DNA of 64,000 nucleotides. It comes from an uncultured Candidatus Saccharibacteria bacterium. Lineage in GTDB: Bacteria > Patescibacteriota > CPR2 > UBA1875 > CAIMLA01. The stretch spans positions 159,265-223,264 of the forward strand of contig CAZQLQ010000001.1 in the NCBI GenBank assembly GCA_964594415.1. The letters run 5' to 3'. The translations under genes were made by a program, and so were the position numbers. The notes under the pieces are model-generated. The model ran no database searches, was not told where the DNA came from, and worked only from the letters and a program-made list of their open reading frames with translations. Below, one piece after another: positions 45,831 to 62,901 of the stretch; the stretch's first letter is position 1; the number at the start of each line of letters is the position of its first letter.

Positions 45831-47114
45831 ATGAAAGTAACGAGAGAAGACCTTGGCAGCAAGGTGAAGTTGGTTATTGAGGTAGAGAAGGACAAGTTAG
45901 TAGAAGCCGGCGATGTGGCCTTCAATAAGCTAGCGCCAACTGTAAAAGTAGACGGATTTAGGCCAGGAAGAGCGCCGAGAAATATTGTTATCAGAGAAAT
46001 AGGCCAGCAGGCATTTGATGCTGAAGTTCTCGATAATGCAATCGTAAGCACCTATTACGAAGCGGTTATTCAGGAAAAATTAGATGTAGTTGGCTCTCCG
46101 GAAGTCAAAATTATTAAATTTGTGCCGACTGATGAACTTACTTATGAAGCAACTGTAGAAATAATGCCGGAAGTAAAACTGCCGGATTTGACAAAAATTT
46201 CTGTTAAGAGAGAAACGCAAAAGGTTACCGAAAAGGAAATTCGAGAAGTTTTGGATGACATTGCCAAACAGTTAGCAAAAAACGTGAAATCAGAAAAACC
46301 AGCTGTTTTGGGTGATAGGGTAGAGATAAATTTTGAAGGATTCAAATGCGGAGTCCCTTTTGACGGCGGAAAAAGCGAGAATCATCCTTTTGTTCTTGGT
46401 GAAGGCAAATTTGTGCCTGGATTTGAGGATCAGATAGCCGGGATGGCTGAAGGCGAGGAAAAGGAAATCGAAGTTACTTTTCCGGCAGATTACCACTCGA
46501 AGGACCTAGCCGGGCAGAAGACGACCTTCAAGATCAAGATGAACCTTGTCGAAAATATCATTTTGCCTGAGCTTACAGATGAGTTTGCAAAAAATGTAGG
46601 TCCTTTTACTGATCTTGCACAGCTCAAGGCTGATATCGAAAAAGAACTTCTTTTTACCAAAGAGAGAGAAGCTAGAAAAAAAGTAGAGGACGAGATTATC
46701 GAAAAGCTAGTCGAGAAGACCAAACTGGAAGCTCCTCACTCACTCGTGCACCAAGAAACTCACAGATTATTGCACGAGATGGAACACAACCTTCAGCATA
46801 GCGGACTTTCGATGGAAAAATATTATGAGATGGCGAAGAAAACTGAAGAAGAAGTAGAGAAAGATCTCGAGCCGGAGGCAGAAAAGCGCGTGAAGGGAGG
46901 ACTGGTACTTTCACAAGTCGCAAGAGATATAAAGGCTGAAGCCACTGAGGATGAAATAAATGCCTTTATCACAGAAAAAACTGCGCTTTATCCCGAGGAA
47001 CAGAGAAAACAAGCGGAAGAATATTTCGATACTGATAATGCAAGGCGTCAGGTAGAAAATGCGATAGTCGGCCAGAAGGTAATGGACCACCTCTACGAAA
47101 CCTGTTCTAAGTAA
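45831..47114 (+). CDS. tig: Trigger factor
   Basis: N-terminal ribosome-binding domain (GFRPGRAPRNIV), PPIase middle region, C-terminal arm. Confidence 0.9.
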   Translation: MKVTREDLGSKVKLVIEVEKDKLVEAGDVAFNKLAPTVKVDGFRPGRAPRNIVIREIGQQAFDAEVLDNAIVSTYYEAVIQEKLDVVGSPEVKIIKFVPTDELTYEATVEIMPEVKLPDLTKISVKRETQKVTEKEIREVLDDIAKQLAKNVKSEKPAVLGDRVEINFEGFKCGVPFDGGKSENHPFVLGEGKFVPGFEDQIAGMAEGEEKEIEVTFPADYHSKDLAGQKTTFKIKMNLVENIILPELTDEFAKNVGPFTDLAQLKADIEKELLFTKEREARKKVEDEIIEKLVEKTKLEAPHSLVHQETHRLLHEMEHNLQHSGLSMEKYYEMAKKTEEEVEKDLEPEAEKRVKGGLVLSQVARDIKAEATEDEINAFITEKTALYPEEQRKQAEEYFDTDNARRQVENAIVGQKVMDHLYETCSK

Positions 47115-47126
47115 TTAATTATCCAA

Positions 47127-47161
47127 AAGGGGCTTTGGGAGTACTCCCAAAGCCCTATTTT
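47127..47161 (+). terminator. Terminator after tig
   Basis: GGGGCTTTGGGAGTACTCCCAAAGCCC hairpin plus TATTTT. Confidence 0.65.
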
Positions 47162-47163
47162 CC

Positions 47164-47425
47164 ATGTCATCCCTGGCGCCATTCCAGGGATCTATATAAA
47201 AAGTATAGATTCCAAGGCTTGACACTTGGAATGACAATGGTGTGTCATCCTCGCGAACGCGGGGATCCCTCTTCTCCTTGTCATTCTGTCCGACGACTCC
47301 GATGAGTTCGTGTCGGACTCCGTCGGAGAGCGTAGTCGAAGAATCTCGTCCTCCCATGTCATTCCAAGAGTCAATCCTTGGAATCCATTTCTTTGCCTGC
47401 CCGAACCTTCAAGGGGTGGAATGAA
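47164..47425. repeat. Mosaic palindromic repeat cluster R1 (GTCATYC...GRATGAC unit family)
   Basis: Consecutive short hairpin units: GTCATCCCTGGCGCCATTCCAGGGATC, GATTCCAAGG..CCTTGGAATGACA, GTCATCCTCGCGAACGCGGGGATC, a 68-bp unit GTCATTCTGTCCGACGACTCCGATGAGTTCGTGTCGGACTCCGTCGGAGAGCGTAGTCGAAGAATCTCG, GTCATTCCAAGAGTCAATCCTTGGAATCC. Individual units recur in clusters R2-R8. Confidence 0.8.
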
Positions 47426-47495
47426 TTTAGTTTTGTATACTTAAATATTTATATTTATTTGCCTATAATAAGGAAGAAAATAAGCAAATACTATA

Positions 47496-47887
47496 TGGAT
47501 GAACAAATAAAAACAAGTGAGATTATTGCAAAGTATAGAGGCATATATGAGGGACTAAAGCCGATATATTCTCCTGCGATTGGTGAAAAAGTTTATTTTA
47601 ATATGCCAGGATTTAAGCATCTTATATTTAAAGGAAAACATAGACGACAAACTAAAGCTATCCTTAACCGTTTAGTGCTTATACCCTTGATTGCGCCTGT
47701 AATAATAAATTGTAAAGAAGAGACAGAAATTCGCATAAGAAAAGAAAATATTGATGGTAAGAAAATTAGGGTTACTTATTATGCGCTCGAGGCTCATGTT
47801 GGTAAAGATAGCGTTCGAGTAAGAGTAATAACGCGAAAAGTTGGCGAAAAAGGAAAACATTATTTTCAAAGCATAATGAAGTATTAA
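47496..47887 (+). CDS. Hypothetical protein
   Basis: ORF after the repeat cluster, followed by a clean terminator. The 5' part of ORF-track entry 47378 lies in the repeat and is discarded. Confidence 0.45.
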
Positions 47888-47918
47888 AAAAAGCGTTTCA
47901 AATGAAACGTTTTTTTTG
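47888..47918 (+). terminator. Intrinsic terminator
   Basis: AAAAAAGCGTTTCAAATGAAACGTTTTTTTT. Confidence 0.7.
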
Positions 47919-48029
47919 TGCTTGTTTCCGACTTAGGAGATTTCACCTTGGCCGGTTCTAGGGCAAGCCCCACAAGCACAACTTCATTATATATCATTAA
48001 GAGTTTTTTGTAAATCCACCATCTTGTCG

Positions 48030-48240
48030 CTTGCCCGAACCTGTAAGGGGCGGGAAGGGTCTCTTTTACTTGTCATCCTCGTGCTTGACACGGGGATCTC
48101 TCTTCTCCTTGTCATTCTGTCCGACGACTCCGATGAGTTCGTGTCGGACTCCGTCGGAGAGCGAAGTCGAAGAATCTCGAGATCCTTCATTACATTCAGG
48201 ATGACATTGTATTTATTGTTCGAGCGCAGCGAGAACTATT
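48030..48240. repeat. Mosaic palindromic repeat cluster R2
   Basis: Contains TGCCCGAACCTGTAAGGGGCGGG unit, GTCATCCTCGTGCTTGACACGGGGATC, the 68-bp GTCATTCTGTCCGACG...GAATCTCG unit and CATTCAGGATGACATTGTATTTATTGTTCGAGCGCAGCGAGAAC unit. Confidence 0.8.
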
Positions 48241-48266
48241 AGTGTATAATTTTATAAGAAGGAGGA

Positions 48267-48641
48267 ATGATGGATCCTGTAATAATTGGTGTTATGGCTA
48301 TGATAGTCTTTGCAGCCATTTTAGGAGTTTTTGAGTGGGGTTCTTCGATAAATGAAAAAGAATCATATAAGACACGAAAAAAGGAGTCTAACACACTTAT
48401 AACGTTCGGAGCGGTTTTGTTAGGTATAAGCTATATCTTCGCTACTTCGTTGACTTTTCAAATTTATAATTATACTTGTCGGTTTTTTATTTTACTTCTT
48501 GTTATTACTACAATTTTATTGATATATTTTCACAACTTATATAAAAATAAGCTCTATTTTTATGTTATTTTAGTCCTATTTTTTTTTATGCTTTTTGTTT
48601 TCTATATGACGGAACATGCTTTTGATGGAGCATTGATGTAA
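48267..48641 (+). CDS. Hypothetical polytopic membrane protein
   Basis: TATAAT -10 and AAGGAGG RBS upstream. Hydrophobic throughout. Confidence 0.45.
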   Translation: MMDPVIIGVMAMIVFAAILGVFEWGSSINEKESYKTRKKESNTLITFGAVLLGISYIFATSLTFQIYNYTCRFFILLLVITTILLIYFHNLYKNKLYFYVILVLFFFMLFVFYMTEHAFDGALM

Positions 48642-48686
48642 TTTTAAAAAATAAAAATTATATTAACTGTTAAAAAGGAGGGGATT

Positions 48687-48779
48687 ATGGTAAAAATAGG
48701 ACTTATTGTCATTGTACTAATAATAATCATCGGTGGAGCTTACGCATCATATTATATGAGCCAGAAGAAGGATAAGTAA
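48687..48779 (+). CDS. 30-aa single-TM peptide (not in ORF track)
   Basis: AAAAAGGAGGGG RBS 6 nt before ATG. MVKIGLIVIVLIIIIGGAYASYYMSQKKDK. Followed by hairpin terminator. Confidence 0.3.
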   Translation: MVKIGLIVIVLIIIIGGAYASYYMSQKKDK

Positions 48780-48799
48780 TTTCTTCTGTTCCTTTTTCT

Positions 48800-49215
48800 T
48801 GATAAAAAGGAACACAAAAATCAAGAAAAACTGAACTCTTTTTAAAAAAATTACCCCTCTTTCAATATATTAAAGGAACTAGATCCCTGGAATGGCGCCA
48901 GGGATGACATCGGTATGAGGTAATTTTTTTAAAATGTCGGGCTACCGAGCCGAGCAGTTTTTCGGAGGGGGATCCTCTGTCATCCTCGACTAGTCAATTG
49001 AAAAATATAATCAGTTGATCGGGGATCTAGATTCCCGCTTTCGCGGGAATGACAATATTTCCCCCTGTCATTCTGTCCGACGACTCCGATGAGTTCGTGT
49101 CGGACTCCGTCGGAGAGCGTAGTCGAAGAATCTCGTCCGCCTGTTGTCATTCCTAGTCGCAAGCTAGGAATCCATTCTTTATATAGATCCCTGGGTTGGC
49201 GCCAGGGATGACAAA
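48800..49215. repeat. Mosaic palindromic repeat cluster R3
   Basis: GATCCCTGGAATGGCGCCAGGGATGACA, GTCGGGCTACCGAGCCGAGCAGTTTTTCGG unit, GTCATCCTCGACTAGTC..., GATTCCCGCTTTCGCGGGAATGACA, the 68-bp unit, GTCATTCCTAGTCGCAAGCTAGGAATCC. The 5' about 170 bp is colinear with R8 (62095-62240). Confidence 0.8.
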
Positions 49216-49233
49216 TTGTACTATAATACCTAC

Positions 49234-49773
49234 ATGACCACATACAAAATCCACATTTTTGAAATAGACAAGGGCAGTGGGAAGCTGTATATAAATTTCA
49301 GCACGAAGGGCGAAACGGAATGCTTCGCGAAGTTTAAAAAGAAAGTAAAAAAGGGCAATAATCCGATATCTCTAACCAAATCCCTTGGGACTTCAGAAGC
49401 ATTCCCGAAACAGAAAGAAGCAATAATCGCAATCGACGAGCTGATCAATGAGCTGGAGAAAAAGGGCTTCGAGGTAATAGCAGGGCCACCGTTTCAGAAT
49501 AAGTATTATCAAATATACGTAATAGAGCTAAACAACTACCCACATACGGTTTATGTCGGGCAGACGAAATATTTCCCGGAGATTAGACTCGCACAACACC
49601 AGATAGGGTACAATTCGGCGAGTGTAGTCCGAAGGGCAGAAAGTGCAAAACTTCGCCCGGATCTCTTCGTCCATATCGAGGAGGCCAAAACGAAAGAAGA
49701 GGCGCTGTATCTAGAGTCAGAAGTCGCAGAATATCTCAAATGGAAAGGGTATAAGGTTTACGGCGGCCACTAA
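49234..49773 (+). CDS. GIY-YIG nuclease-domain protein
   Basis: C-terminal YQIYVIEL...TVYVGQTKYFPEIRLAQHQ...E matches GIY-YIG core (GIY, YIG, R, H/E). Start uncertain: ATG 49216 overlaps a TACTATAAT -10, so 49234 is chosen and may be leaderless. Confidence 0.55.
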   Translation: MTTYKIHIFEIDKGSGKLYINFSTKGETECFAKFKKKVKKGNNPISLTKSLGTSEAFPKQKEAIIAIDELINELEKKGFEVIAGPPFQNKYYQIYVIELNNYPHTVYVGQTKYFPEIRLAQHQIGYNSASVVRRAESAKLRPDLFVHIEEAKTKEEALYLESEVAEYLKWKGYKVYGGH

Positions 49774-49927
49774 TATTGTATAAATATTTTATACAATATT
49801 TGCAATTGTGCAAAATTATCGAATTTTTGTGCATAAATAATCGCTCTGTATAGACAAAAAATCAAAATAAAAAGGCTTTATTTTCAAATTTACAAGAGTA
49901 TAATATGGTTAGTAATGAAGGACTTGT

Positions 49928-50278
49928 ATGGACAAAATAGAAGATTTACAGCAAAAAGTTGCAAAATTTAGAGATGACAGAGATTGGCAGCAATTTCATA
50001 ATCCTAAAGACTTAGCGATTGCGATATCTATTGAGGCGTCTGAATTACTAGAATGCTTTAGATGGAAGTCTATAAAAGAAGTTGAAGAATTTATGAAATC
50101 TGAAAAGTCTACCAGCGTGGAAGAGGAAATGGCGGACGTTCTTATTTTGCTCTTAAATCTGGCCGATACAACTGGGATTGATGTCGTAAAAGCGGCAAAC
50201 GATAAACTAGATGCAAATAATAAAAAATACCCTGTAGAAAAATCTAAGGGTAGCGCTAAGAAGTATACGGAGCTTTAA
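49928..50278 (+). CDS. MazG-like nucleoside triphosphate pyrophosphohydrolase (small, single domain)
   Basis: EASELLECFRW and EEEMADVLILLLNLA helices typical of the all-alpha NTP-PPase (MazG/YpjD) fold. Confidence 0.7.
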   Translation: MDKIEDLQQKVAKFRDDRDWQQFHNPKDLAIAISIEASELLECFRWKSIKEVEEFMKSEKSTSVEEEMADVLILLLNLADTTGIDVVKAANDKLDANNKKYPVEKSKGSAKKYTEL

Positions 50279-52146
50279 TGAGATTATATGAGGCATCGCT
50301 GGCTGATTTTAATAGGGACATAACTTATAATAAAATTACTGATATTCTAACTGAAGCATTTAGTTTTTTTTATAAAAAAGAACCCACAATTGGCGAAAAA
50401 CTATCTTGGACAAATTCTTTGAGACAGGTAAGGGACGTTCTTACTGAAGCCAAATTAACAGACAATTACATAGCGATTGAAACTGAGGTGCCCTATACCT
50501 CAAGAAGAATAGATGTACTTTTGTTTGGTAGGAATCAACAAAAAGGCGATAACATCGTTCTTATTGAGCTTAAACAATGGGATAATTCTGGAGTGTTGGA
50601 TTCAGAAATAGATGGTAATGTTTATGTAAAATACAGAAACGGCTTCAGCGAAGAGCCTCATCCTAGTTTGAAAGTAGAGGGATATCATTATGGATTGATT
50701 GACAATTACTCAATTTTTGAAGAACAGCCGCCTGTAAGTTTAGTTTCTTGCGTATTTTGTCATAATTATTCAAGGACGGCAGCAAGTCAAGTCTTGTTCA
50801 ATAACAAATTTTCTGAATATACAGAAAAATACCCGGTTTTTACAAAAGAGCAGGTTCAGGAACTGGGGAATTACTTAACACTGAGGTTAGCCGGAGGCGC
50901 TGGACTAGAAGTCTTTAATAGATTTATAACGAGTAATATAAGGCCATCCAAGAAACTACTTGATCACACTTCAGATATGATTCACAAGCAGCAAATATTT
51001 AATCTTATTGATGATCAAATTACTGCATATAATGCCATTAGGTCAGTATCTAATAAGCTGGCAAAATTAGATGAAAAGTCAGTTTTTATTATAAAAGGTG
51101 GCCCAGGAACAGGGAAATCTGTTATTGCTTTGGAGGTTTTGGGCGAATTACTAAGGAAAGGTTTTAACGCTTTTTATTTAACTGGCTCAAAGTCATTTAC
51201 TGAGACTCTGAGGAAAATTGTGGGCGTAAGAGCGAAAGACAGAATTAAATATTTTAATAGTTACAGAGATTATAAGGGCCCGCAAATTGATGTGTTTGTT
51301 TGTGACGAGGCTCATCGCATTAGAGAAAAAAGCAAAAAGATGTTTGATAGAAATGAGATTATTGACCAGTTACCTCCTCAAATAGATGAGATCTTGAAAG
51401 CAAGTAAAATGTCTATCTTTTTGATAGACGAAAAACAAACAGTTCGACCGGATGAAGTTGGAAGTGTTAGTATGATCAAAGAGGCCGCGATTAGAAATGG
51501 AGTTCTGCAGAAGAATATAAGGGAATACGAATTAACGACCCAATTTAGATGTAATGGGTCTGATTCTTATATTCAATGGCTAGACAATACTCTGCAGCTA
51601 GCAGATACTGATAAAGTTACTTTAGAGAAAAGTGATAAATATGATTTTAAAATTTTTTATACACCCCAATTGCTTAAAAGTGCTATTGAAGAAAAAAACA
51701 AGATAAAAGAAAATTCTTCACGTCTCGTAGCGGGTTTTTGTTGGCCATGGAGCGAACCGCTTGAGGACGGCTCCTTGGTTGATGATGTTATCATTGGCGA
51801 TTTTAAGATGCCCTGGGAAGATAAGAGAAATTTTTGGAAATGGGCCACAGACAAAAGCGGCATGGAACAGGTTGGAACAGTATACACCTCCCAAGGTTTT
51901 GAATTTGACTATATAGGTGTTATCTTTGGTCCAGACTTAACTTATAATAACAAAACAAAAAATTGGGAAGCACACCCAGATCTTTCTCACGATTCTATGT
52001 TAATAAGAAATAACGACAAAATAAAAGAACATCTGAAAAATGTTTACAGAGTTTTAATGTCTAGGGGAATGAAGGGTTGTTATGTGTATTTTATGGATAA
52101 AGAAACTGAAAAATATTTTCGTGATAGGTTGAATCTAGCCGAATAG
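50278..52146 (+). CDS. DUF2075/Schlafen-like nuclease-helicase: N-terminal PD-(D/E)xK nuclease plus SF1-like P-loop ATPase
   Basis: IDVLLF...IVLIELKQW (D...ExK), Walker A GGPGTGKS, Walker B VCDEAHR, C-terminal SQGFEFDYIGVIFG. Translationally coupled to the MazG-like gene (stop/start overlap). Confidence 0.8.
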   Translation: MRLYEASLADFNRDITYNKITDILTEAFSFFYKKEPTIGEKLSWTNSLRQVRDVLTEAKLTDNYIAIETEVPYTSRRIDVLLFGRNQQKGDNIVLIELKQWDNSGVLDSEIDGNVYVKYRNGFSEEPHPSLKVEGYHYGLIDNYSIFEEQPPVSLVSCVFCHNYSRTAASQVLFNNKFSEYTEKYPVFTKEQVQELGNYLTLRLAGGAGLEVFNRFITSNIRPSKKLLDHTSDMIHKQQIFNLIDDQITAYNAIRSVSNKLAKLDEKSVFIIKGGPGTGKSVIALEVLGELLRKGFNAFYLTGSKSFTETLRKIVGVRAKDRIKYFNSYRDYKGPQIDVFVCDEAHRIREKSKKMFDRNEIIDQLPPQIDEILKASKMSIFLIDEKQTVRPDEVGSVSMIKEAAIRNGVLQKNIREYELTTQFRCNGSDSYIQWLDNTLQLADTDKVTLEKSDKYDFKIFYTPQLLKSAIEEKNKIKENSSRLVAGFCWPWSEPLEDGSLVDDVIIGDFKMPWEDKRNFWKWATDKSGMEQVGTVYTSQGFEFDYIGVIFGPDLTYNNKTKNWEAHPDLSHDSMLIRNNDKIKEHLKNVYRVLMSRGMKGCYVYFMDKETEKYFRDRLNLAE

Positions 52147-52152
52147 AGTAAA

Positions 52153-52839
52153 ATGAAAGATATTTTAAAATATACAGAATTAACATCGAAAGAAAACTTG
52201 CCACTTCAAAAAGGTATGAATTTCAGGCCTTCTGGAAAGTCGTATTCTATTTTGTTGATGTCGGTAAGAAAAAATTCTCCGTATAACGACGGATTTGATG
52301 AAAATAATAATCTTGTTTATGAAGGGCATGATGTTTCAAAAAGACAAGGTATTGATCCTAAAAAATTAGACCAGCCAATGTTTAATTTAACAGGAACACT
52401 TACTGATAATGGTAAATTTTATAAAGCAGCAGAGGATTACAAACTATCTAGAAAAAATAAAGAAAAAATTCAGGTTTATGAAAAAATAAATGATGGAATG
52501 TGGTCTGATAAGGGCATGTATTATTTAATTGATGCAAGAACGGAGTTTTCGGAGACAGAGAAAAGAAAAGTCTTTAAGTTTGTCTTATCCCCAATCGAAT
52601 CATATTCTACTGATATAGAGGAAATAGTTGAAGACTTTGAATTTTCCCGTAGAATTCCAACTGTTATTAAGCAGAAAGTGTGGCAAAGAGATAATGGCAA
52701 GTGTGTAGAATGCGGTTCAAAAGATGATTTGCACTTTGATCACATCATCCCATTTTCTAAAGGAGGGTCTAGTTTAACTGAAAGTAATGTTCAGATTTTG
52801 TGCAGAAAATGTAATTTAAAAAAATCAGCAAAAATTTAG
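52153..52839 (+). CDS. HNH endonuclease with about 150-aa uncharacterised N-terminal domain
   Basis: C-terminal CVECGSKDDLHFDHIIPFSKGG...CRKCNLKK = HNH with Cys4 zinc. N-terminal domain unassigned. Confidence 0.75.
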   Translation: MKDILKYTELTSKENLPLQKGMNFRPSGKSYSILLMSVRKNSPYNDGFDENNNLVYEGHDVSKRQGIDPKKLDQPMFNLTGTLTDNGKFYKAAEDYKLSRKNKEKIQVYEKINDGMWSDKGMYYLIDARTEFSETEKRKVFKFVLSPIESYSTDIEEIVEDFEFSRRIPTVIKQKVWQRDNGKCVECGSKDDLHFDHIIPFSKGGSSLTESNVQILCRKCNLKKSAKI

Positions 52840-52991
52840 TTATTAATCAGAATTAGGTAAAAATGGCACTGGAAAAAAAATCAGTCAAATAATGAGTTTA
52901 CATCTGTCCTTGCGGGGGTGGCAGGGGAGTATTTTAAGAGTAGATTAAAACCATCTTGTTTGCTATAATAACGAAAATATGAGGAAATCAG

Positions 52992-53987
52992 ATGACTACT
53001 AATCGAATAACCGACTTAATAACTGAGCTTGAAGAAGATAGAAAATCTAAGGTTATAGTTTACTTTACTAGTGACAAGCAACCAAACGAACATTTTGGAA
53101 CCCAAGTACATCCTGAGCAGCTTGTTTATTTTCGTAAAATCTTAGAAGAAATAAAAAAAACGGAAAGAATAACTCTGGTTTTGGATACTAGAGGAGGTGC
53201 AATAGATATGCCTTGGCCCCTAGTTAATTTGATTAGAGAATATTGTAAAAAATTTGAAGTAATTATTCTAGAAAAGGCACTTAGTGCTGGAACATTGATA
53301 GCCTTAGGTGCAGATAAAATTGTCATGCAACCATTTTCACATTTAAGCCCTGTTGATCCCGCCACCTTTATCCCAGATGGTAATTCAAGTATTCTAAAGA
53401 AACTCGAAATAGAAGACATAATAGGTTTTATAGATTTTGCTAAGGAAAAAGTTGGCATTGCAGAACAGTCTTCGTTAACAGAAGTTATGAAAGAGCTAAC
53501 TAAGGAAGTTCGTCCGACGTTATTGGGTTCAGTAAATAGAACATACGCACTGATTAGAAAACTTGCTAGACAGCTCCTGTCTTTGCATAATGGAAAATTA
53601 ACGGAAAAACAAGTAAACGAGATTACCGAGCATTTGACACAGAAGCTTTATTCTCATAGTTATTTAATAAATAGGAAAGAAGCAAAAGAAATTATCGGCT
53701 TTGGCAATATTATTGAAAATTCTTCGGAAAATACGAAAAGGATTTCAAAGGATATAATGGATTATTATAGAGAAGTCATGGAAATTGAAAAAGATTTTGA
53801 CCCATTATATTTACTCTCCGAAAAAGAAACAGTTGACTGCAAGGTAGTCGGGGCAGCCATACATAGCAATACAATGAGATATTCCTTCAGCCATAAGATT
53901 AGGCTTACAAAAATCCCAGATCCGGCTGGTAGGCTAAATATTAATTTCGAGATACTAGAAAGAAAGTGGTCGGAAGAGAAAATTTAA
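52992..53987 (+). CDS. ClpP/SppA-fold serine peptidase (SDH-family-like)
   Basis: VLDTRGGAID...ALSAGTLIALGADKIVM resembles ClpP-fold nucleophile region. C-terminal alpha-helical extension. Confidence 0.5.
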   Translation: MTTNRITDLITELEEDRKSKVIVYFTSDKQPNEHFGTQVHPEQLVYFRKILEEIKKTERITLVLDTRGGAIDMPWPLVNLIREYCKKFEVIILEKALSAGTLIALGADKIVMQPFSHLSPVDPATFIPDGNSSILKKLEIEDIIGFIDFAKEKVGIAEQSSLTEVMKELTKEVRPTLLGSVNRTYALIRKLARQLLSLHNGKLTEKQVNEITEHLTQKLYSHSYLINRKEAKEIIGFGNIIENSSENTKRISKDIMDYYREVMEIEKDFDPLYLLSEKETVDCKVVGAAIHSNTMRYSFSHKIRLTKIPDPAGRLNINFEILERKWSEEKI

Positions 53988-53996
53988 GGAGAAGTT

Positions 53997-55605: not shown

Positions 55606-55621
55606 TAATTGGAGGGAAAAT

Positions 55622-55897
55622 ATGAAAAAAATAATAAGAATTTTTTCAATTTGCTTAGTGGTAACTTATCTTTTAGTGATTTCTTATCAAGCGTTTATTT
55701 GGCAACGTTATAAAACCCCAACTTTTATGAGCGATAGAGTGTTTTGTGATCTTGAAAGTAAACAAATACCTCCCACAAATACAGTATACGAAAAGGTATT
55801 TGGCAAAGCCTGTACTTGTTGTGGAGCGCCTACGCCCTTAACTTTGGCTGATGGAGTAAGGGGCTTTACTCAATTAATTTTTCTTGATTTTGAATAA
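55622..55897 (+). CDS. Small secreted/membrane protein with CTCCGAP motif
   Basis: GGAGGG RBS. N-terminal TM. Confidence 0.4.
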   Translation: MKKIIRIFSICLVVTYLLVISYQAFIWQRYKTPTFMSDRVFCDLESKQIPPTNTVYEKVFGKACTCCGAPTPLTLADGVRGFTQLIFLDFE

Positions 55898-55929
55898 AAT
55901 TAGTTTCAAGATCGTTTCTTCTAATAAAT

Positions 55930-56090
55930 AGGTATGATGACGGGGATGAGTATGAGTGGGGGATAGGGAATGAGATTCTTCCCGCCCCTTTCAGGTTCGG
56001 GCAGACGTCAGGCTCCCTTCGACTAACGCTCTCCGACGGAGTCCGACACGAACTCATCGGAGTCGTCGGACAGAATGACAAAAAGGAATA
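55930..56090. repeat. Repeat cluster R5 (contains reverse-complement of the 68-bp unit)
   Basis: CGACTAACGCTCTCCGACGGAGTCCGACACGAACTCATCGGAGTCGTCGGACAGAATGACA is the reverse complement of the unit in R1-R3. Also CCCGCCCCTTTCAGGTTCGGGCAG is the reverse complement of TGCCCGAACCTGAAAGGGGCGGG. Confidence 0.8.
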
Positions 56091-56093
56091 AAT

Positions 56094-56585
56094 ATGAATG
56101 AGAATTACATAAATGAATTAGAAGAATACATGATTTCGGTGTTGAAGGCTGGGAATAAGGGTAAGCCTCTTTCGATGCTCGCAAAATACAATTGCAGTGA
56201 GGTTTCGAGGCTCGTCGGTCTGAAGGTTCTTGAGTATCTAGGTGAAGATAGTAAGCCGTTTATACTAAAGGGTGAGGTGACTAAGAACGGAATAGATAAG
56301 GATAATATCCATGACATTTTAGGCTTTCTTGACGTTGATTCCTCAAAGTTCGTTCTTATTGATCCGACTATCTGGCAATTCTTCCCGGAAAGTGAAGAAA
56401 TTTTCTTGGGCGAATTTGAAGCGCTTGATGATGCAATTGCTTTCTGTGCTGATTTCTATGAAGGGGAGTGGAACTTTTCGGAATATGTAGACAAAGAGAG
56501 TGAAGACGTAAATGAGATGATGAAAATCATTAAGATGAATTGTGGCCAAGCCTCTGATTGGGAGAGAGATACAACCCAGGATTAG
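56094..56585 (+). CDS. Hypothetical acidic protein
   Basis: ORF between repeat clusters. Confidence 0.45.
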   Translation: MNENYINELEEYMISVLKAGNKGKPLSMLAKYNCSEVSRLVGLKVLEYLGEDSKPFILKGEVTKNGIDKDNIHDILGFLDVDSSKFVLIDPTIWQFFPESEEIFLGEFEALDDAIAFCADFYEGEWNFSEYVDKESEDVNEMMKIIKMNCGQASDWERDTTQD

Positions 56586-56589
56586 TAGG

Positions 56590-56830
56590 GGATGTATTGT
56601 TCGAGCTAAGGGAGAACTATTTATATTTAGGACTTCTCTCTGCGCTCGAAGAATAAAAATAGGGGAGGGGGCTAGATTCCAAACATCCTTCTTCGCCAAG
56701 GCTACGAAAGGACAAGTACGATTTGGAATGACACAGGGGAGTGAGGATTAGATTGCCGCGCTTCCAACTTCGCTAAAGCTTCGCTAGACAAGTCGCTCGC
56801 AATGACGATGAGGCGTGCAAGCAGGGGAAT
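56590..56830. repeat. Repeat cluster R6
   Basis: TATTGTTCGAGCTAAGGGAGAACTATTT, CTTCTCTCTGCGCTCGAAGAATAAAAAT and GATTTGGAATGACA units shared with R2, R7 and R8. Confidence 0.7.
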
Positions 56831-56885
56831 CGGGATTAATACAAAAAAATTTGGCCGGCTTTCATAACGCTTTTGTATATATACG

Positions 56886-58511
56886 TTATGTTAGCCGGCC
56901 ATTTATTAATTCTATTGTTCGGTTTGGACGGATAGAGTCTATGAAATCTCTGTCGTGTGAAACAACGACGAAGGTTTCGGGATAAGTCTGAAGGGCTTTT
57001 TCTAGCTCTTCGATAGCTGGGATGTCCAGATGGTTTGTCGGTTCATCCAGGAGAAGTAAATTGGTGTTTTTATAGACTAGTGTTGCAAGAAGCAGTCTGG
57101 CACGTTCCCCAGGACTTAGACTCTTACCTTTTTGTTGGAGCTTTTCTTGGTCGAAGTTGAAGCTATGCAAGATGGTTCGCAACCTAGAGTCGTCGATAGG
57201 GCCGTCTTCTGAGGCAAGCTTCTTGGCGTTCTCGAGGGCTGAGATTTCTTCGTCAGGCAAACTCTTAAATTGGTCTATGAGGCCAATTTTCACTCCGTTC
57301 CCGAAACGAACATCTCCTTCTTCTGGGCTTTGCACTCCTTCGATAATCCGCAGTAGAGTCGTCTTACCACTGCCATTTGGGCCAGTGATTACGATTCGAT
57401 TTCCTCGCTCAATCATGAGATCGAGCGGACCGACATCGATCTTGGGATAATGGATTGTAACGTTTTTAAGCTCGACTAGAATATTGCTCACTTCGCCCTG
57501 GTGTCCGCTGAAGGCAAACTTCAGATTGATCTCTTTGAGCGGTTTCTGCGGTATCGCTAGCTGTTCTTCGCGAGTAGCTGTAGCTTTGGCGGTTGCAGAC
57601 AATCTACCTGCAGCCTTCTCTTTGGCCGAGTTTCTTCCTAACTTTTCAGTATCCGAAGCTTTCGAATTTGAATCTGCTCTCCTGGCTTCGTTGTGCAGTC
57701 TGCGACTTGTATCGCTTAGTCTTTTTCTCTCTTCCAGATATCTTTCGTAAGCCTCTTTCACTGATTTTTTTTGCGCTTCCCTCGCTTCTAAATATTCTTC
57801 GTATCCAAGCGAGTAGAGATCGATTCTAGATCCATCCGAGAGTAGTTCGGCAATTTTGGTCGTAACTGTTTTAAGCATTCGTCTGTCGTGAGTAACAATT
57901 ACAACAGCCGAGTTTGTGGAAAGCAGGAACGCTTCAAGAATCTCGATGCCTTCTAGATCCAAGTCGTTAGTCGGCTCGTCTAGCAAAAGAATGTCGAACT
58001 GCGACATAAGAATGGCCGCCAGCATTACGCGCTTGCGTTCACCGCCTGATAGGGTGCTGACAGGCTGTTCCAACAGACGAGTGTCGAGGGTAATTTTCTG
58101 CAATACTTTTTGAAGCCTCGTATCGAATGAATAAGTTCCAAGGTGTTCAACTTTTTCCATTGCTTGTTCGAGTCGGGAAAGAGATTCTTTGCTGGCATCA
58201 ACTTTCTCAGAAGCTTGTTCGAACTCAAGCTCGGCATCCATTATGCCAGTGAGCTTTTTGATGAATTCAACAACAGGTAGTTCGAGATGTTCTCTCGGTT
58301 CTTGAGGAAGGTAACCAACTATTAGATTGTCTCTGATTACTTTTCCAGACGACGGAAGGATTTCTCCAGCAATGATGCGGAGCAACGTGGTTTTTCCGGT
58401 TCCGTTAGGACCGATAAGTCCGATTCTTTCGCCCTCATTTATGATAAGCGAAATTCCTTTTAGAACCTCTCTAGTCTCATATTCGAATCGTACGTCGTCT
58501 ACTTTCAGCAT
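56886..58511 (-). CDS. ABC-F family ATPase (two ABC domains, charged interdomain linker, no TM domain)
   Basis: GPNGTGKTTLLRI / LSGGERKRVMLAAIL and GPNGSGKTTLLRI / LSPGERARLLLATL. R/K/E-rich linker between them. Confidence 0.85.
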   Translation of the reverse strand: MLKVDDVRFEYETREVLKGISLIINEGERIGLIGPNGTGKTTLLRIIAGEILPSSGKVIRDNLIVGYLPQEPREHLELPVVEFIKKLTGIMDAELEFEQASEKVDASKESLSRLEQAMEKVEHLGTYSFDTRLQKVLQKITLDTRLLEQPVSTLSGGERKRVMLAAILMSQFDILLLDEPTNDLDLEGIEILEAFLLSTNSAVVIVTHDRRMLKTVTTKIAELLSDGSRIDLYSLGYEEYLEAREAQKKSVKEAYERYLEERKRLSDTSRRLHNEARRADSNSKASDTEKLGRNSAKEKAAGRLSATAKATATREEQLAIPQKPLKEINLKFAFSGHQGEVSNILVELKNVTIHYPKIDVGPLDLMIERGNRIVITGPNGSGKTTLLRIIEGVQSPEEGDVRFGNGVKIGLIDQFKSLPDEEISALENAKKLASEDGPIDDSRLRTILHSFNFDQEKLQQKGKSLSPGERARLLLATLVYKNTNLLLLDEPTNHLDIPAIEELEKALQTYPETFVVVSHDRDFIDSIRPNRTIELINGRLT

Positions 58512-58599
58512 TACTTATCACCTCCTTTATTTATAATAACAAGGTACGCAACTGACATCAACCGAGTTCCTGCATTTTACAATAAAAAGCTATTTTTGT

Positions 58600-59808
58600 C
58601 TAGGTACACTTAGTGTTGTAATATTTTATAAAAGCAGAGATTCCATAAGGATCTTTGCTATAAACTTCGCCGTTAAATAAGTAAGCGCAGGCTTGGCATT
58701 CGGCTAATCCTTGTTTCCGAAAGTTAATAAAAGTCTCATTTTCTCGCCAATTCTTTACAAAGTTTTTATCAAATAAAGGCAGGTCTTCCTTTTTGTAATA
58801 ATCGGCTTCGTATAACAAGGCGCACGGCAACATATAGCCGTCTACGTCGATAGTTAGACCGCTAACTCCGGCGCGACAAACATCTCTCTTTACCCCCCTT
58901 AGGAATCCCTCGATTGCTGCGTTGGTAACGCCTGTCTTGACACCTTTTTGCTGTAGAGCGTATATCTCCATAATAAAATCAAAATATTTTTCTGGCTCAA
59001 TTACTAGGTCTTGATGCGAGCCTTTGAACGGCTTGAATAAATTGAAGTTGCAAGGACAGTCATGCTCCTGTGCAAATTCAATTAATTTTTTGTAATTTGG
59101 ATAGTTAAAATTGTTTAGAGTGCAGGAAATCTCGACATAAAAACCTTCTTTGCGGAGCTTGCTGATCGATTTCTCTACCTTTTCGAAGACTCCTTTTCCT
59201 CTAATCTCGTCGTTTATTTCTTTTATTCCTTCAAGGCTGACCAGGAAGGCTGGTTTGTTCTCCAATTTTTTTAATTTTTCGATAGTATCGTCATCTATTA
59301 ATGTGGCGTTTGTAATAATATTTACAGCGAATCCGTAATAATCGCAGGCTCTTTCTATGATTTTCATTGCGTCTTCGTGGAGAAAGATTTCTCCGCCGAC
59401 AAGATTGAGCATAAAAACTTTCTCTTTTGCCAGTAATGAAAGCCTATGGTCTATTTTCTCATAGCTAAGCAGTTTTGTGTAATCACCCTGAAAGCAGTGT
59501 TTGCATCTTAGATTGCAAGTGTTGCTGACCTGTATTTCTCCAGAAAGGGGAGTGTCAAAATAGTCTTTGTCTGGTACGGGATAGCTTAGCTGATCTTCTT
59601 TTAGGCTTTGCTTTATGTCTTCCAAGAAAGATTGTAGCTTCTCGGCATCTATCTTCAGCTCTTTTGATATTTCTTCAGCCGATTCCTCCATGTTGAAAAA
59701 CAGGTCTAGAATCCTAGACCCATCTTCGTTCACAAATACCAATTTCCTTATTTCCGGGAAAAAGGCTACCGTGTAGTCAGCATCTTTTCTTAATACTACT
59801 GTTTTCAC
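58600..59808 (-). CDS. Radical SAM / SPASM-domain peptide-modifying enzyme (GTG start)
   Basis: CNLRCKHCF (CxxxCxxC) radical-SAM cluster. C-terminal Cys-rich SPASM-like region (CPCNFN..., CRAGVSGLTIDVDGYMLPCALLYEAD). Confidence 0.85.
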   Translation of the reverse strand: MKTVVLRKDADYTVAFFPEIRKLVFVNEDGSRILDLFFNMEESAEEISKELKIDAEKLQSFLEDIKQSLKEDQLSYPVPDKDYFDTPLSGEIQVSNTCNLRCKHCFQGDYTKLLSYEKIDHRLSLLAKEKVFMLNLVGGEIFLHEDAMKIIERACDYYGFAVNIITNATLIDDDTIEKLKKLENKPAFLVSLEGIKEINDEIRGKGVFEKVEKSISKLRKEGFYVEISCTLNNFNYPNYKKLIEFAQEHDCPCNFNLFKPFKGSHQDLVIEPEKYFDFIMEIYALQQKGVKTGVTNAAIEGFLRGVKRDVCRAGVSGLTIDVDGYMLPCALLYEADYYKKEDLPLFDKNFVKNWRENETFINFRKQGLAECQACAYLFNGEVYSKDPYGISAFIKYYNTKCT

Positions 59809-59814
59809 GATAAT

Positions 59815-59958
59815 TTAGATTTTCTTTAATCTTTTTTCCGTTTTTGTGACTTTGTTTTTGGCCTCAAACTCTTGAACGCAAGGCTTGCCGCCGCAGCTTC
59901 GGAAGCAACATCCAGTCTCGCTATTTTCAGTGCTCTTTTTGATAACCTTAGGTTCCAT
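59815..59958 (-). CDS. Candidate RiPP precursor peptide, 47 aa, four Cys (not in ORF track)
   Basis: Hand translation of minus strand: MEPKVIKKSTENSETGCCFRSCGGKPCVQEFEAKNKVTKTEKRLKKI. GGGGGA RBS 7 nt upstream. Stop lies 6 nt before the rSAM/SPASM gene start. Confidence 0.5.
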   Translation of the reverse strand: MEPKVIKKSTENSETGCCFRSCGGKPCVQEFEAKNKVTKTEKRLKKI

Positions 59959-60243
59959 CTTTTTGTCCCCCAATTAATTATTGGCCGTATTGTATCTTTG
60001 AAATCTTTTGTTGTCAATAGTAATTTTCAGGTGAATACTTTCGCTACCCTTTATCATTTAGTCAAAGCGAAAATTCTTGAGGTCTATTACTTTTGGGTAA
60101 GCAGAGCGAGTATGAGAGGACTCTCGTTTTTTTGTTGAGGAAGGGTGTTTTTTGTGCTATAATCACGCCGGAATGTAAGGAGGATTCTACTATCTTGTAG
60201 ATTCCTTTTCGTTTAGGAACTGAAAAATAAAGGGGGTTACTAC

Positions 60244-60489
60244 GTGCTGGTAATCAGAAAAGTACTTGTCAAGATGTTCGGTTGGAAGCCGGTAGTAAAA
60301 AAGACGCATATCTTTGAGTGCTACGAAGCCGGTTCCCATAACGGGTTTTCATTGTGCGGAATATATGTTTCCGATAAGGATTCCTTAAGTGAAAAAGACG
60401 CAAAAGAATTAACGGGTAAAGAAGCGTCTACTTGCAAGAAGTGCGAAAAGATTTTGGAAAAAAGGCTCAAGGATGAGAAAAAGCAATAA
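60244..60489 (+). CDS. Small basic Cys4 protein, tandem paralog 1 (GTG start)
   Basis: KTHIFECY...SLCG...TCKKCEKILEKRLK. AAAGGGGG RBS. Confidence 0.5.
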   Translation: MLVIRKVLVKMFGWKPVVKKTHIFECYEAGSHNGFSLCGIYVSDKDSLSEKDAKELTGKEASTCKKCEKILEKRLKDEKKQ

Positions 60490-60503
60490 AGGAGGGATAT
60501 CTG

Positions 60504-60728
60504 ATGTACGTTGAATGGAAAACATTTGCAAGAATTTCTGGCAGTGATCTGGTTGTGAGAAAAACACATGCATTTGGGCCGCGTGGAAGATTGTGTTCGT
60601 GTTGCGGTCTTGTGGCGAGATCGAATGAAATGATACATGAACAAGTAGCCAGGGATGTGCTAAAGAAGCCGCCCAAAAGATGCAAAAAATGCGAAGCTGC
60701 CGTGAAGAAATTGCGCAAGCAAAGATAA
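60504..60728 (+). CDS. Small basic Cys4 protein, tandem paralog 2
   Basis: KTHAFGPRGRLCSCCG...RCKKCEAAVKKLRK. Identical AAAGGAGGGATATCTGATG leader to paralog 3. Confidence 0.5.
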   Translation: MYVEWKTFARISGSDLVVRKTHAFGPRGRLCSCCGLVARSNEMIHEQVARDVLKKPPKRCKKCEAAVKKLRKQR

Positions 60729-60744
60729 GCCAAAAAGCAGAAAA

Positions 60745-61029
60745 TTGACGGCAAAGGAGGGATATCTGATGAATTACGAAGCAAGAGTTCTTGTGAGGAT
60801 TTCCAGTTGGGAACTAATAGTTGGCAGGTCGCATTTAGTAACCGGGCAATATAACAATTATTCTCTTTGTGGACAACACTTGGGTTCAGGTAAATCGCTG
60901 AGCGAAAACGAAGCAAAGAGAGTGCTCAAAAAGCCGGTTGTCAGATGTAAGACATGCGAGAAAATCCTCGCAAAGAAAAAAGCCGAAGAAAAAGAACAGG
61001 CAAAGAAAAACAGAGCCAAAAGAGGCTGA
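60745..61029 (+). CDS. Small basic Cys4 protein, tandem paralog 3
   Basis: RSHLVTGQYNNYSLCG...RCKTCEKILAKKK. Confidence 0.5.
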   Translation: MTAKEGYLMNYEARVLVRISSWELIVGRSHLVTGQYNNYSLCGQHLGSGKSLSENEAKRVLKKPVVRCKTCEKILAKKKAEEKEQAKKNRAKRG

Positions 61030-61138
61030 TCTTAAAGAGCTAATATCAAAAGGTATTTCAACATTCACTATCTAATCACCAAAGCCCACCCGAGGTAGCA
61101 ATATTGCTTCCAAGGGTGGGTTTTTACTTTGGTACTTT

Positions 61139-61412
61139 TGTCACTCTGAGCGAAGTCGAAGAGTCTAGAGATCCTTCACTACGTTCAGGATGACATTGTA
61201 TTTATTGTTCGAGCAGCGAGAGAACCATTTTATTGAAAACTTCTCACTCCGTTCGAAGAATAAAATCCACGTCATCCCGAGCTTGTCGAGGGATCTCGGT
61301 CTTATAGATCCTTCGAATCGCTCCGCTCCCTCAGGATGACAAATAGTATATCGTTCGGGGCGAAGCAGAGAGATAGGTAGATCCCCGCGTCCGCGAGGAT
61401 GACATAAAATCT
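61139..61412. repeat. Repeat cluster R7
   Basis: GTCACTCTGAGCGAAGTCGAAGAGTC, CATTCAGGATGACATTGTATTTATTGTTCGAGCAGCGAGAGAAC, CTTCTCACTCCGTTCGAAGAATAAAAT, GTCATCCCGAGCTTGTCGAGGGATC, CCTCAGGATGACA, GATCCCCGCGTCCGCGAGGATGACA. Confidence 0.8.
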
Positions 61413-61446
61413 CGTAATTTTCTCATTTTTGTGCTAAAATTACGCA

Positions 61447-61965
61447 ATGAAAATGCCACAAAAACTTTTTACCGAACATTTGCTATTAAGGCCAGTCTCT
61501 CCAAAGTATTCGAGAGAAGTATTCACGAATTTTACCGACGAAGTAACGGCTATGATGTATCCTTCTACTCCTAAGGAAGAGCAAGAGACAATTGATTATC
61601 TTGTTGAAGCAGAAGAAAAGATGAGAGAAGGTATAAATTATCAAGTGTTAATTTTTCTTAAAGACACGGATGAATTTATAGGAGGAGCAGGAGTTCATCA
61701 TATTGACACTAAAACTCCTGAGTTTGGAATTTGGATAAAAAAATCTGCTCAAGGGCATAAATATGGTAGAGAAGCAGTTGTGGGACTAAAAGACTGGGCA
61801 GATAAGAATCTAGAGTATGATTATTTAAGATACCCGGTAGTAACTAGCAATACACCTAGTAGAAAAATTCCGGAGTTTCTCGGTGGAAAAGAAGTAAATG
61901 AATTTGATACAGAAAAGCAGGACGGAACTATAATGAAAATGGTAGAATATTATATTTTTAAATAG
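61447..61965 (+). CDS. GNAT family N-acetyltransferase (RimJ/RimL-like)
   Basis: TEHLLLRP start typical of RimL-type GNATs. Central acetyl-CoA-binding-like block. Preceded by TGTGCTAAAAT -10. Confidence 0.7.
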   Translation: MKMPQKLFTEHLLLRPVSPKYSREVFTNFTDEVTAMMYPSTPKEEQETIDYLVEAEEKMREGINYQVLIFLKDTDEFIGGAGVHHIDTKTPEFGIWIKKSAQGHKYGREAVVGLKDWADKNLEYDYLRYPVVTSNTPSRKIPEFLGGKEVNEFDTEKQDGTIMKMVEYYIFK

Positions 61966-61969
61966 CATC

Positions 61970-62225
61970 TATTGTTCGAATAAAATGAGAACTATTTTTA
62001 CTACAGACTTCTCTCTACGTTCGAAGAATAAAAATTGTCATTCTGAGCTTGTCGAAGAATCTAATCTGTTTTCTGCCACTTTTCCTTGATGAAAAGTGAC
62101 TCAAAAATCAAGAAAAACTGAACTCCTTTTTAAAAGATTATCCTTTTTTCGATATTCTGTAAGGTTTTCCTACAAGGAATAACTTTTTAAAATAGTCGGG
62201 CTACCGAGCCGAACAGTTTTTCGGG
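61970..62225. repeat. Repeat cluster R8
   Basis: CTTCTCTCTACGTTCGAAGAATAAAAAT, GTCATTCTGAGCTTGTCGAAGAATC, then a block colinear with R3 (CAAAAATCAAGAAAAACTGAACTC...GTCGGGCTACCGAGCCGAACAGTTTTTCGG). Confidence 0.8.
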
Positions 62226-62295
62226 GGATAGAACTACCTCGCAAAAGTTGCATTTTTGTGCTAAAATAGGTGCACTTTAACTATTGGAGGACTTT

Positions 62296-62901
62296 ATGGA
62301 AAACATACAAAGTCAAATACTTATACCAACTGTAATTCAGAAAACTTACGCCGGCGAGCGGGCGTTTGACATATATTCGAGACTTCTTGAGGATAGAATA
62401 ATCTTCCTCGGGACGCCGATCGACGATAACGTCGCAAACCTTATCATCGCTCAGCTTTTGTACTTAGAGAGCGTAGATACCAAGAAAGATATATCGCTGT
62501 ATATCAACAGTCCCGGCGGGAGCGTAAGCTCGGCTCTCGCAATCTACGATACTATCCAACTCGTTAAACCGCATGTTTCGACTATTTGCGTAGGGCTTGC
62601 AGCTAGTGCCGCCGCCTTAATTCTTACCGCTGGTGAAAAGGGCAAGAGATTAACTCTCCCAAATTCCCGCATAATGATCCATCAGCCGATCGTTTCCGGT
62701 ATGGAGGGGCAGGTAACTGACATTGAGATTCATGCGAGAGAACTTCTGAGAACGAAAAAACAATTAAATGAGATTTTATCGAAGCATACGGGTCAGAAAA
62801 TCGAAAAGATTAACGTCGACGTTGAGCGTGATTACTTTATGACTGCAGAAGAGGCGAAGAAATATGGTCTCATCGACAGTATAATAGAAAAGAATAAATA
62901 A
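62296..62901 (+). CDS. clpP: ATP-dependent Clp protease proteolytic subunit
   Basis: [18 protein letters not shown]...[11 protein letters not shown]...MIHQP: ClpP Ser-His-Asp context. Preceded by TGTGCTAAAAT promoter and GGAGGA RBS. Confidence 0.9.

Follow-up and report, generated by a model that had tools for sequence, protein, structure and literature searches.

A probable flexible genomic islet between tig and clpP in a Candidatus Saccharibacteria genome

We analyzed the region between the trigger factor gene (tig) and clpP in a 64-kb stretch of DNA (hereafter, the window; ~38% GC) from an NCBI metagenome-assembled genome (MAG) of an uncultured Candidatus Saccharibacteria bacterium, which belongs to the Patescibacteria, or candidate phyla radiation (CPR). 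The left core flank is tig (45831–47114, plus strand; Trigger_N, FKBP_C, and Trigger_C domains) and the right core flank is clpP (62296–62901, plus strand; CLP_protease, E = 1.5e-83), with 15,181 nt between the tig stop and the clpP start. A first-pass annotation of this DNA had placed the end of tig at 47114 and the start of clpP at 62296, about 15 kb apart, and both the domain matches and the distance bear this out. We propose that the junction is probably a flexible genomic islet, that is, a variable and largely defence-like hotspot flanked by core genes. The hotspot is real but fairly ordinary in kind. Its closest known counterpart, a Joint Genome Institute (JGI) metagenome contig designated L001 (relatives are given L-numbered loci), carries different cargo in the same place, and more distant relatives have tig and clpP side by side.

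The tig–clpP junction in relatives and in L001

The adjacency survey covered one genome per GTDB species and 80 tig loci, in which only one relative (L003) falls within the family and the other loci are distant. clpP lies at most 700 bp downstream of tig at 60 of the 80 loci, with a median of 249 bp; it is 1.0–1.5 kb away at two and not nearby at 16, and no distance exceeds 1.5 kb. The premise of the first-pass annotation that the two genes are usually adjacent was therefore correct, and the contiguous pairs that it proposed to look for were found among family relatives: the distance is 27 bp in L088 (tig 55% identical, 842-kb contig) and 39 bp in a relative at 57% identity. The gene orders of these relatives show that the ancestral arrangement in the lineage, as reconstructed from them, was trx-tig-clpP-rpoB with 27–39 bp between tig and clpP. 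Other states also occur. L096 and L097 (58%) have a 1.67-kb insert containing a uracil-DNA glycosylase gene and a pair of small genes; the two contigs differ in one of this pair. In a clade at approximately 60% identity (L003 and L083–L087), 0.7–2.5 kb separate tig from rpoB, and clpP is absent from the site. Because 27-bp, 39-bp, 1.67-kb, and clpP-less states exist side by side, the junction 3′ of tig has been repeatedly remodelled in the family, and the 15-kb distance in the window is an extreme case of this recurrent remodelling.

L001 is the closest relative (tig 77%, ClpP 92.5%, and trx-tig DNA 73.7% identical to the window), and its tig-clpP distance is 8.6 kb. Mapping of the scaffold and breakpoints by blastn and blastp revealed a set of elements that both genomes have in the same order. 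After tig come repeat clusters, a gene for a GIY-YIG domain protein or its remnant, a slot, and a 163-aa open reading frame (ORF); these are followed by repeats, a promoter with small Cys-rich paralogs, further repeats, and the clpP promoter with clpP-rpoB. The content of the slot is wholly different. In the window (49774–56072) it comprises a MazG-like/DUF2075 gene pair, an HNH endonuclease, an SDH-type protease, and small ORFs, whereas the L001 slot encodes RE_EcoO109I, a type II cytosine methyltransferase, and an 803-aa AAA_13 protein matching PDC-S06/PrrC models, so that its order reads trx-tig-[RE_EcoO109I, methyltransferase, AAA_13, small ORFs]-clpP-rpoB. Homology to L001 resumes at 56073, the right edge of the slot, and again at 62254, just before clpP. 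Of the 15,181 nt, 1,294 are homologous within the L001 interval, 3,178 match elsewhere in L001, and 10,709 (70%) have no DNA homology there. The interval is accessory and variable, as the first-pass annotation had supposed, given the different cargo of L001 in the same slot and the different insert of about 1.7 kb in L096/L097. The alignment with the closest genome, which that annotation recommended, also qualifies the idea: the cargo differs and most of the DNA is unmatched, but the scaffold is common to both genomes and the interval is not wholly foreign.

The chromosomal context is stable. The thioredoxin gene trx (45486–45815, plus strand; Pfam Thioredoxin, E = 1e-27) is the left partner of tig in all relatives, and the trx-tig order is kept in L001, L003, L083, L086, L088, and L096. 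On the other side, rpoB begins approximately 200 nt past clpP (5′ part, 63107–64000, plus strand), an order that is also kept in relatives. The backbone of the family reads PBP1(minus)-tyrS-recG-comEA-[variable]-trx-tig-[variable]-clpP-rpoB-rpoC-rpsL-rpsG-fusA. A terminator-like hairpin of tig with a 12-bp stem and a T-rich tail is located at 47129–47156 (plus strand). The clpP start is the ATG at 62296, which follows GGAGG and gives a protein of 201 aa, equal to ClpP of the relatives; the listed ORF begins at TTG 62284. The first-pass annotation had also assigned clpP a promoter of its own directly after the last repeat cluster. The extended -10 promoter-like motif TGTGCTAAAAT is indeed present 5′ of the gene (62257–62267, plus strand), but this motif is the organism's generic extended -10 motif, with 12 matches in the whole window against 3.8 expected, and because of this it carries no clpP-specific information. 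As a side observation on clpP, the window encodes a ClpC/ClpB-type AAA+ ATPase (21173–23665) between nusA and a PIN/TRAM gene. In L083, L084, and L086, which lack clpP beside tig, nusA is followed directly by PIN/TRAM with no ATPase gene between them, which suggests a joint loss of clpP and its partner ATPase in this clade.

Cargo, scaffold genes, and a relocated radical SAM unit

The slot opens with a MazG-like gene (49928–50278) and a gene for an SLFN-g3 helicase/DUF2075 protein (50278–52146), both on the plus strand and assigned by Pfam. Hundreds of proteins are related to the DUF2075 protein with 53–61% identity, among them proteins from Doudnabacteria, Omnitrophota, Pacearchaeota, and Nanoarchaeota. 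A MazG-like gene directly before or overlapping the DUF2075 gene was also found in a Doudnabacteria genome and in a Pacearchaeota (DPANN) archaeon (L098, 4660–6857; L101, 4630–6851), with DUF2075 56% identical. Since the pair recurs at this level of identity while the host tig is merely 35–40% identical to tig of other Patescibacteria classes, the pair is, judging from these comparisons, a horizontally spreading two-gene module. It is also a candidate two-gene defence module, although not a complete system in PADLOC, where the defence-like genes of the window gave partial matches only (PDC-S41, AbiO, and Nhi). The L001 slot yielded a type II methyltransferase and the PDC-S06/PrrC-like protein in the same analysis. 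The defence content of the junction therefore consists of a type II restriction-modification system and a PDC-S06/PrrC-like protein in L001, and of candidate genes in the window.

The remainder of the slot holds an HNH endonuclease gene (52153–52839), a gene for an SDH-type ClpP-like serine protease (52992–53987), four small ORFs (53997–54212, 54216–54710, 54736–55083, and 55058–55522), and an ORF for a 91-aa predicted membrane or secreted protein (55622–55897). All are on the plus strand and specific to the window, and for the HNH, protease, and four small ORFs no homolog was found in L001. Between tig and the slot lie further window-specific genes on the plus strand: a 130-aa hypothetical gene (47495–47887) with its own terminator (47885–47918), which has no homolog in L001 and gave no family match in profile searches, and two small membrane-protein genes (48267–48779; 124 aa, 48267–48641, and 30 aa, 48687–48779), which are absent from L001 and whose family match is limited to a weak one to DUF2157. 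A GNAT acetyltransferase cassette (61447–61965, plus strand) near clpP is likewise absent from L001 and carries its own TGTGCTAAAAT motif (61430–61440).

Among the scaffold genes, the GIY-YIG gene (49234–49773, plus strand; Pfam GIY-YIG, E = 6e-7) marks the left edge of the swappable slot. Its product has weak similarity to UPF0213 and is not a known homing endonuclease; L001 keeps only the final 37 nt of the gene (7229–7265, 92% identical). The 163-aa ORF (56094–56585, plus strand) has 68% amino acid identity to L001 12318–12818 and no family matches in profile searches. Three tandem genes for small Cys-rich paralogs (60244–60489, 60504–60728, and 60769–61029, plus strand) are 29–43% identical to L001 13089–13573. 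They are preceded by the promoter TGTGCTATAAT (60135–60163, plus strand), and the DNA 5′ of them (60148–60236) matches L001 12993–13084. Neither the GIY-YIG protein nor the small ORFs had informative matches in PHROGs, NCBIfam, or PDB.

On the minus strand, a complete transcription unit (56886–60017) with the promoter TTGACA-17-TACAAT (60017–59989) resembles a locus for a ribosomally synthesized and post-translationally modified peptide (RiPP). It encodes a 47-aa Cys-rich precursor beginning with MEPKVIKKSTENSETGCCFRSCGGKPCVQEF (59815–59958), a radical SAM/SPASM maturase (58600–59808), and an ABC-F protein (56886–58511). The ABC-F protein passes the NCBIfam cutoff for ribosomal-protection-like ABC-F (421 bits against 380) and has no transporter domain, which suggests that the unit may make a peptide aimed at the ribosome, with the ABC-F protein giving self-protection.

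The unit is 70% identical at the DNA level to L001 4818–1696, in inverted position, with protein identities of 74%, 72%, and 72%. In L001 it is on the plus strand and precedes trx, with its orientation to tig reversed. Two SIR2 remnants, both from the 5′ end of the gene, stand on either side of it there (1604–1638 and 4866–4952) as 35-nt direct repeats that are 80% identical, whereas the SIR2 gene is intact in the window (43473–44234). Because the locus differs in L001, with SIR2 remnants there and an intact gene here, the unit moved as a block in one of the two lineages, and the remnants suggest that this block was inserted into, or recombined within, the SIR2 gene. The two loci thus show that the whole unit changed place from one of the variable regions on either side of trx-tig to the other.

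The second of these regions (33370–45370), between comEA/tRNA-Leu and trx, spans 12 kb in the window against 0.17–2.3 kb in relatives. It contains approximately 14 co-oriented ORFs of 125–260 aa, mostly with no family match, several of which are preceded by a repeated promoter-like sequence of 38–47 nt. Toward trx, it encodes a phage-tail-lysozyme-domain protein (42750–43397), the SIR2 protein (43473–44234), and an alpha/beta hydrolase (44249–45367, minus strand). No TGTCATYC hairpins were found in this region.

Hairpin repeats and their part in cassette turnover

The clusters of palindromic repeats noted in the first-pass annotation are real. The basic unit is a hairpin of 23–60 nt with a constant frame, TGTC-ATYC-stem-loop-stem-GRAT-C, and variable stems. 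TGTCATYC occurs 24 times in the window against 3.3 expected, a count reached in 0 of 100 shuffles, and 21 of the 24 occurrences are within 47165–62043. About 20 complete TGTCATYC-stem-loop-stem-GRATC units are present, all of them intergenic; within the interval, 7 of the 12 gaps between genes hold a strict unit, compared with 0 of the 18 gaps beyond it (Fisher p = 4e-4). Folding of the short units is stronger than that of their shuffled counterparts (z of about -2.8 to -3.0). Their orientation is mostly plus near tig and minus in the right half, except for the last unit, and the clusters mix several unit types in both orientations.

Cluster 1 (47160–47430) consists of short hairpins in both orientations and the first copy of a long unit (47278–47333). 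Cluster 2 (48020–48245) includes the second copy (48109–48163), and cluster 3 (48757–49215) combines several short hairpins with the third copy (49066–49120) and an element of approximately 170 nt (48777–48983). A single hairpin unit (55523–55568, minus strand) stands at the end of the cargo block. Cluster 4 (55921–56085), at the right edge of the swapped slot, contains the fourth long-unit copy (56026–56081, minus strand), which is 100% complementary to the first. Clusters 5 (56592–56810) and 6 (61135–61405) follow, and cluster 7 (61967–62230), named R8 in the first-pass annotation, includes the second copy of the ~170-nt element (62044–62227). ORFs of 67–87 aa within the clusters (47115–47357, 47987–48190, and 48980–49243, all on the minus strand) are almost certainly spurious gene calls; they have peptide strings such as GGRDSSTTLSDGVRHELIGVVGQND in common, which come from the translated long hairpin unit.

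The 56-nt core of the long unit is 100% identical in its four copies (47278, 48109, and 49066, plus; 56026, minus). Between the window and L001 the unit is 88–92% identical, compared with 73.7% for trx-tig DNA, with covariation in the outer stem (ATTCT/AGAAT here and ATTGC/GCAAT in L001). We considered and rejected the long unit as a hammerhead-like or unusually stable RNA (folding z of -0.5 to -1.0; no Rfam match). The ~170-nt element is AT-rich with two or three small hairpins, and further copies were found in L001 (6876–7046 and 14954–15122), L091 (1920–2086), and L094 (111–276). Pairing in its first hairpin is kept by compensatory changes in 7 of 11 pairs across the six copies. Because the element occurs in either orientation relative to adjacent genes, it is not a clpP leader; it could be an element resembling a miniature inverted-repeat transposable element (MITE), or a small RNA gene. 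The Rfam search assigned the repeats to no described RNA family, and a permissive scan of 47.1–49.3 kb gave only sub-threshold matches (FtrB, 27 bits against a cutoff of 66). Literature searches on repeats and hotspots in CPR bacteria, and on the repeat sequence, yielded nothing relevant.

The same repeat families are present in the L001 interval (11 core matches against 0.9 expected), and a few related hairpin units surround tig in L086; no such units were detected in L003, L083, and L088. A metagenome scan with the long-unit core retrieved six short contigs from one sample, one of which is the strain of L001 (98.7% identical). The other five carry the repeats beside genes for secreted or surface proteins (camelysin-like, LTD, RCC1-repeat, and DUF11/SpaA-like); the repeats are therefore dispersed in accessory regions and not specific to the tig-clpP junction. 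For the same reason, they may simply accumulate in permissive DNA.

The first-pass annotation took the pattern to be that expected of an insertion or recombination hotspot mediated by the repeats, with clusters separating all of the cassettes. Part of this picture stands. Direct copies of a single repeat unit enclose each of three cassettes that are specific to the window: the 130-aa gene (47495–47887), between 92-nt direct repeats that are 97% identical (47257–47348 and 48088–48179), the membrane-protein pair (48267–48779), and the GNAT gene, between copies that are 84% identical (61228–61265 and 61996–62033). Repeats likewise adjoin the swapped slot at its right edge and the radical SAM unit at its left edge. 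However, the left edge of the slot lies just past the GIY-YIG stop (49774) and not at a repeat, and the right edge of the radical SAM unit (60017–60148) is in unique sequence. No cluster separates the GIY-YIG gene from the MazG-like gene (49774–49927) or the radical SAM unit from the Cys-rich paralogs (59809–60243). No integrase, transposase, or REP-associated tyrosine transposase (RAYT) was found among the scanned ORFs of the window, and the cassettes carry their own TGTGCTAWAAT-type promoter motifs and often their own terminators. The variable slot and the repeat-bracketed cassettes thus agree with the first-pass idea, while mediation by the repeats is unproven, with two major junctions off the repeats and no recombinase in the 64 kb. 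We take the hairpin units to be elements of the repetitive extragenic palindromic (REP)/bacterial interspersed mosaic element (BIME) type that accompany accessory DNA, and RecA-type deletion or duplication probably uses them as substrates. That they take an active, site-specific part is a minority hypothesis.

Alternative explanations, known systems, and significance

We propose the following course of events for the islet. In the sub-lineage of the window and L001, the junction gained a scaffold of hairpin clusters, the GIY-YIG gene, the 163-aa ORF, and the Cys-rich paralogs. A slot inside this scaffold holds genome-specific cargo, namely the MazG-like/DUF2075 pair with the HNH endonuclease and the SDH-type protease in one genome and the restriction-modification system with the PrrC-like ATPase in the other, and further self-contained transcription units are present or absent between repeat copies. 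Homologous recombination in the conserved scaffold and in the core flanks, following the uptake of DNA, may be the main route by which cargo is exchanged; a ComEA-like HHH protein is encoded in this genome and in those of relatives. Single cassettes may be gained or lost via recombination between direct copies of the 56–92-nt repeats. The hairpin units would be kept by constraint at the level of structure and would act as recombination substrates and perhaps in transcript insulation; a role as integration sites is only hypothetical.

Several points weigh against this interpretation. The large expansion is present in only two genomes, so the turnover claim depends on a small sample together with smaller variants in distant relatives. 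Either gain or loss, and either position of the radical SAM unit as the ancestral one, would fit the genomes compared. The defence-like genes of the window match no complete known defence system in PADLOC. The comparison of base composition recommended by the first-pass annotation gave a mixed result: the GC content of the 49.9–55.5 kb block is 0.339, lower than the 0.359–0.410 of equal-size backbone windows, but the dinucleotide distance of the cargo (43.9) is within the backbone null (51 ± 22). Composition was therefore rejected as proof of foreign cargo and supports a foreign origin weakly. The junctions of the window, moreover, are known from the assembly alone and not from reads.

Three other explanations were weighed against a core-gene-flanked islet. 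The hairpin clusters might be active cassette-capture sites worked by a structure-specific enzyme, either a RAYT-type Y1 transposase encoded elsewhere or the GIY-YIG nuclease, in an integron-like or REP/RAYT-like array. The bracketing of three cassettes by direct copies of one unit is in line with this scenario, and the constant TGTCATYC...GRATC flanks around covarying variable stems are the signature expected of a protein that recognizes the base of the hairpin. The 56-nt long unit is, moreover, identical in four copies and conserved above coding DNA, expanded intervals are unit-rich while the unexpanded L003, L083, and L088 are without units, short metagenome contigs end at repeats, and both genomes have a GIY-YIG gene or remnant at the slot edge. 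Nevertheless, we consider such capture rather unlikely. No transposase, integrase, or RAYT was found in the 64 kb, the major junctions at 49774 and 60017–60148 are off the repeats, and the cassettes have promoters of their own, unlike integron cassettes. L086 has hairpin units around tig and yet an interval of only 2.5 kb. The units that flank surface-protein genes elsewhere fit passive accumulation, and the GIY-YIG match is weak, UPF0213-like, and to no known homing endonuclease. The more specific proposal that the clusters are recognition sites at which such an enzyme, with the GIY-YIG protein as one candidate, captures and shuffles self-contained cassettes in an integron-like manner, without an integron integrase, in ultra-small Patescibacteria is improbable.

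We regard it as very improbable that the 15 kb is ancestral, stably inherited chromosome, with tig and clpP separated by an old rearrangement. The scaffold common to L001 in order (GIY-YIG remnant, 163-aa ORF, Cys-rich paralogs, and repeats) and the backbone-like dinucleotide signature of the cargo would suit such a history. On the other hand, 70% of the interval is without DNA homology in L001, whose slot genes differ, tig and clpP are contiguous in relatives, and the cargo pair is common to archaea with DUF2075 56% identical; this reading is already largely refuted by L001 and L088. The least probable explanation is an assembly artefact, in which the MAG contig was mis-joined at repeat clusters and unrelated pieces came to lie between tig and clpP. 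Repeats of 56–112 nt at 75–100% identity do occur at many junctions, and contigs of a related metagenome break exactly at such repeats. Against a mis-join, two independent assemblies, the MAG and the JGI contig L001, agree on the order of the scaffold all the way from tig to clpP-rpoB, the junctions of greatest extent (49774 and 60017–60148) are in unique sequence, and over the plus-strand parts the GC skew stays positive and rises steadily.

A flexible islet between core genes has well-known counterparts. Core-gene-flanked flexible genomic islands and defence hotspots are known from the pangenomes of E. coli, Pseudomonas, and Vibrio; to our knowledge, tig-clpP is not a described site. As in those hotspots, the flanks are housekeeping genes that are adjacent in relatives (27 bp in L088 and 39 bp in the 57% relative), and the cargo differs at the same position (in the window, L001, and L096/L097, of which two genomes have large cargo). 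The cargo may also be of the same kind (restriction-modification, nuclease, helicase, and abortive-infection-type genes, which in the window are candidate defence genes), and there is no dedicated integrase, with turnover compatible with recombination in the conserved flanks. The differences are the reduced Patescibacteria genome, the lineage-specific scaffold, and the interlaced hairpin clusters. The locus does not have the features of a classical genomic island, since no integrase was found and the only tRNA gene in the window (tRNA-Leu, 33254–33340; Rfam at gathering thresholds) is 14 kb upstream of the interval. A repeat search of the window gave no att-like direct-repeat pair bounding the whole interval.

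The repeats resemble REP/BIME elements of Proteobacteria in being short extragenic imperfect palindromes (23–60 nt here) with a conserved tetranucleotide 5′ of the hairpin (TGTC here, GTAG in E. coli REPs), and in forming mosaic clusters of several unit types in both orientations at several dispersed loci. Unlike REP/BIME elements, they are unrelated in sequence, combine variable stems with constant flanks, and have no RAYT in the 64-kb window; their clusters also hold the 56–70-nt long hairpin and the ~170-nt AT-rich element, and their occurrence in the window is limited to a single accessory interval. Integron arrays and clusters of attC sites lacking integron integrases (CALINs) are similar in that small genes, mostly in one orientation and with functions that are either unknown or in defence, lie between imperfect palindromic, structure-conserved repeats. 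We rejected an integron, because no IntI was found in the scanned ORFs of the window, the repeat ends are wrong (TGTCATYC/GRATC instead of RYYYAAC/GTTRRRY), and the cassettes have their own promoters and terminators; in addition, each junction has several hairpins and not a single attC.

How defence and accessory genes come and go in the very small genomes of Patescibacteria is little understood. The locus described here is a concrete, mappable variable slot between tig and clpP-rpoB and a marker for accessory-gene flux in CPR bacteria. Its conserved flanks could anchor primers or read recruitment to survey cargo diversity in metagenomes. The MazG-like/DUF2075 pair is common to CPR bacteria and DPANN archaea, and a structure-conserved family of hairpin repeats tracks accessory DNA in these genomes. 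These observations do not overturn current ideas but extend the known biology of hotspots to a poorly studied group.

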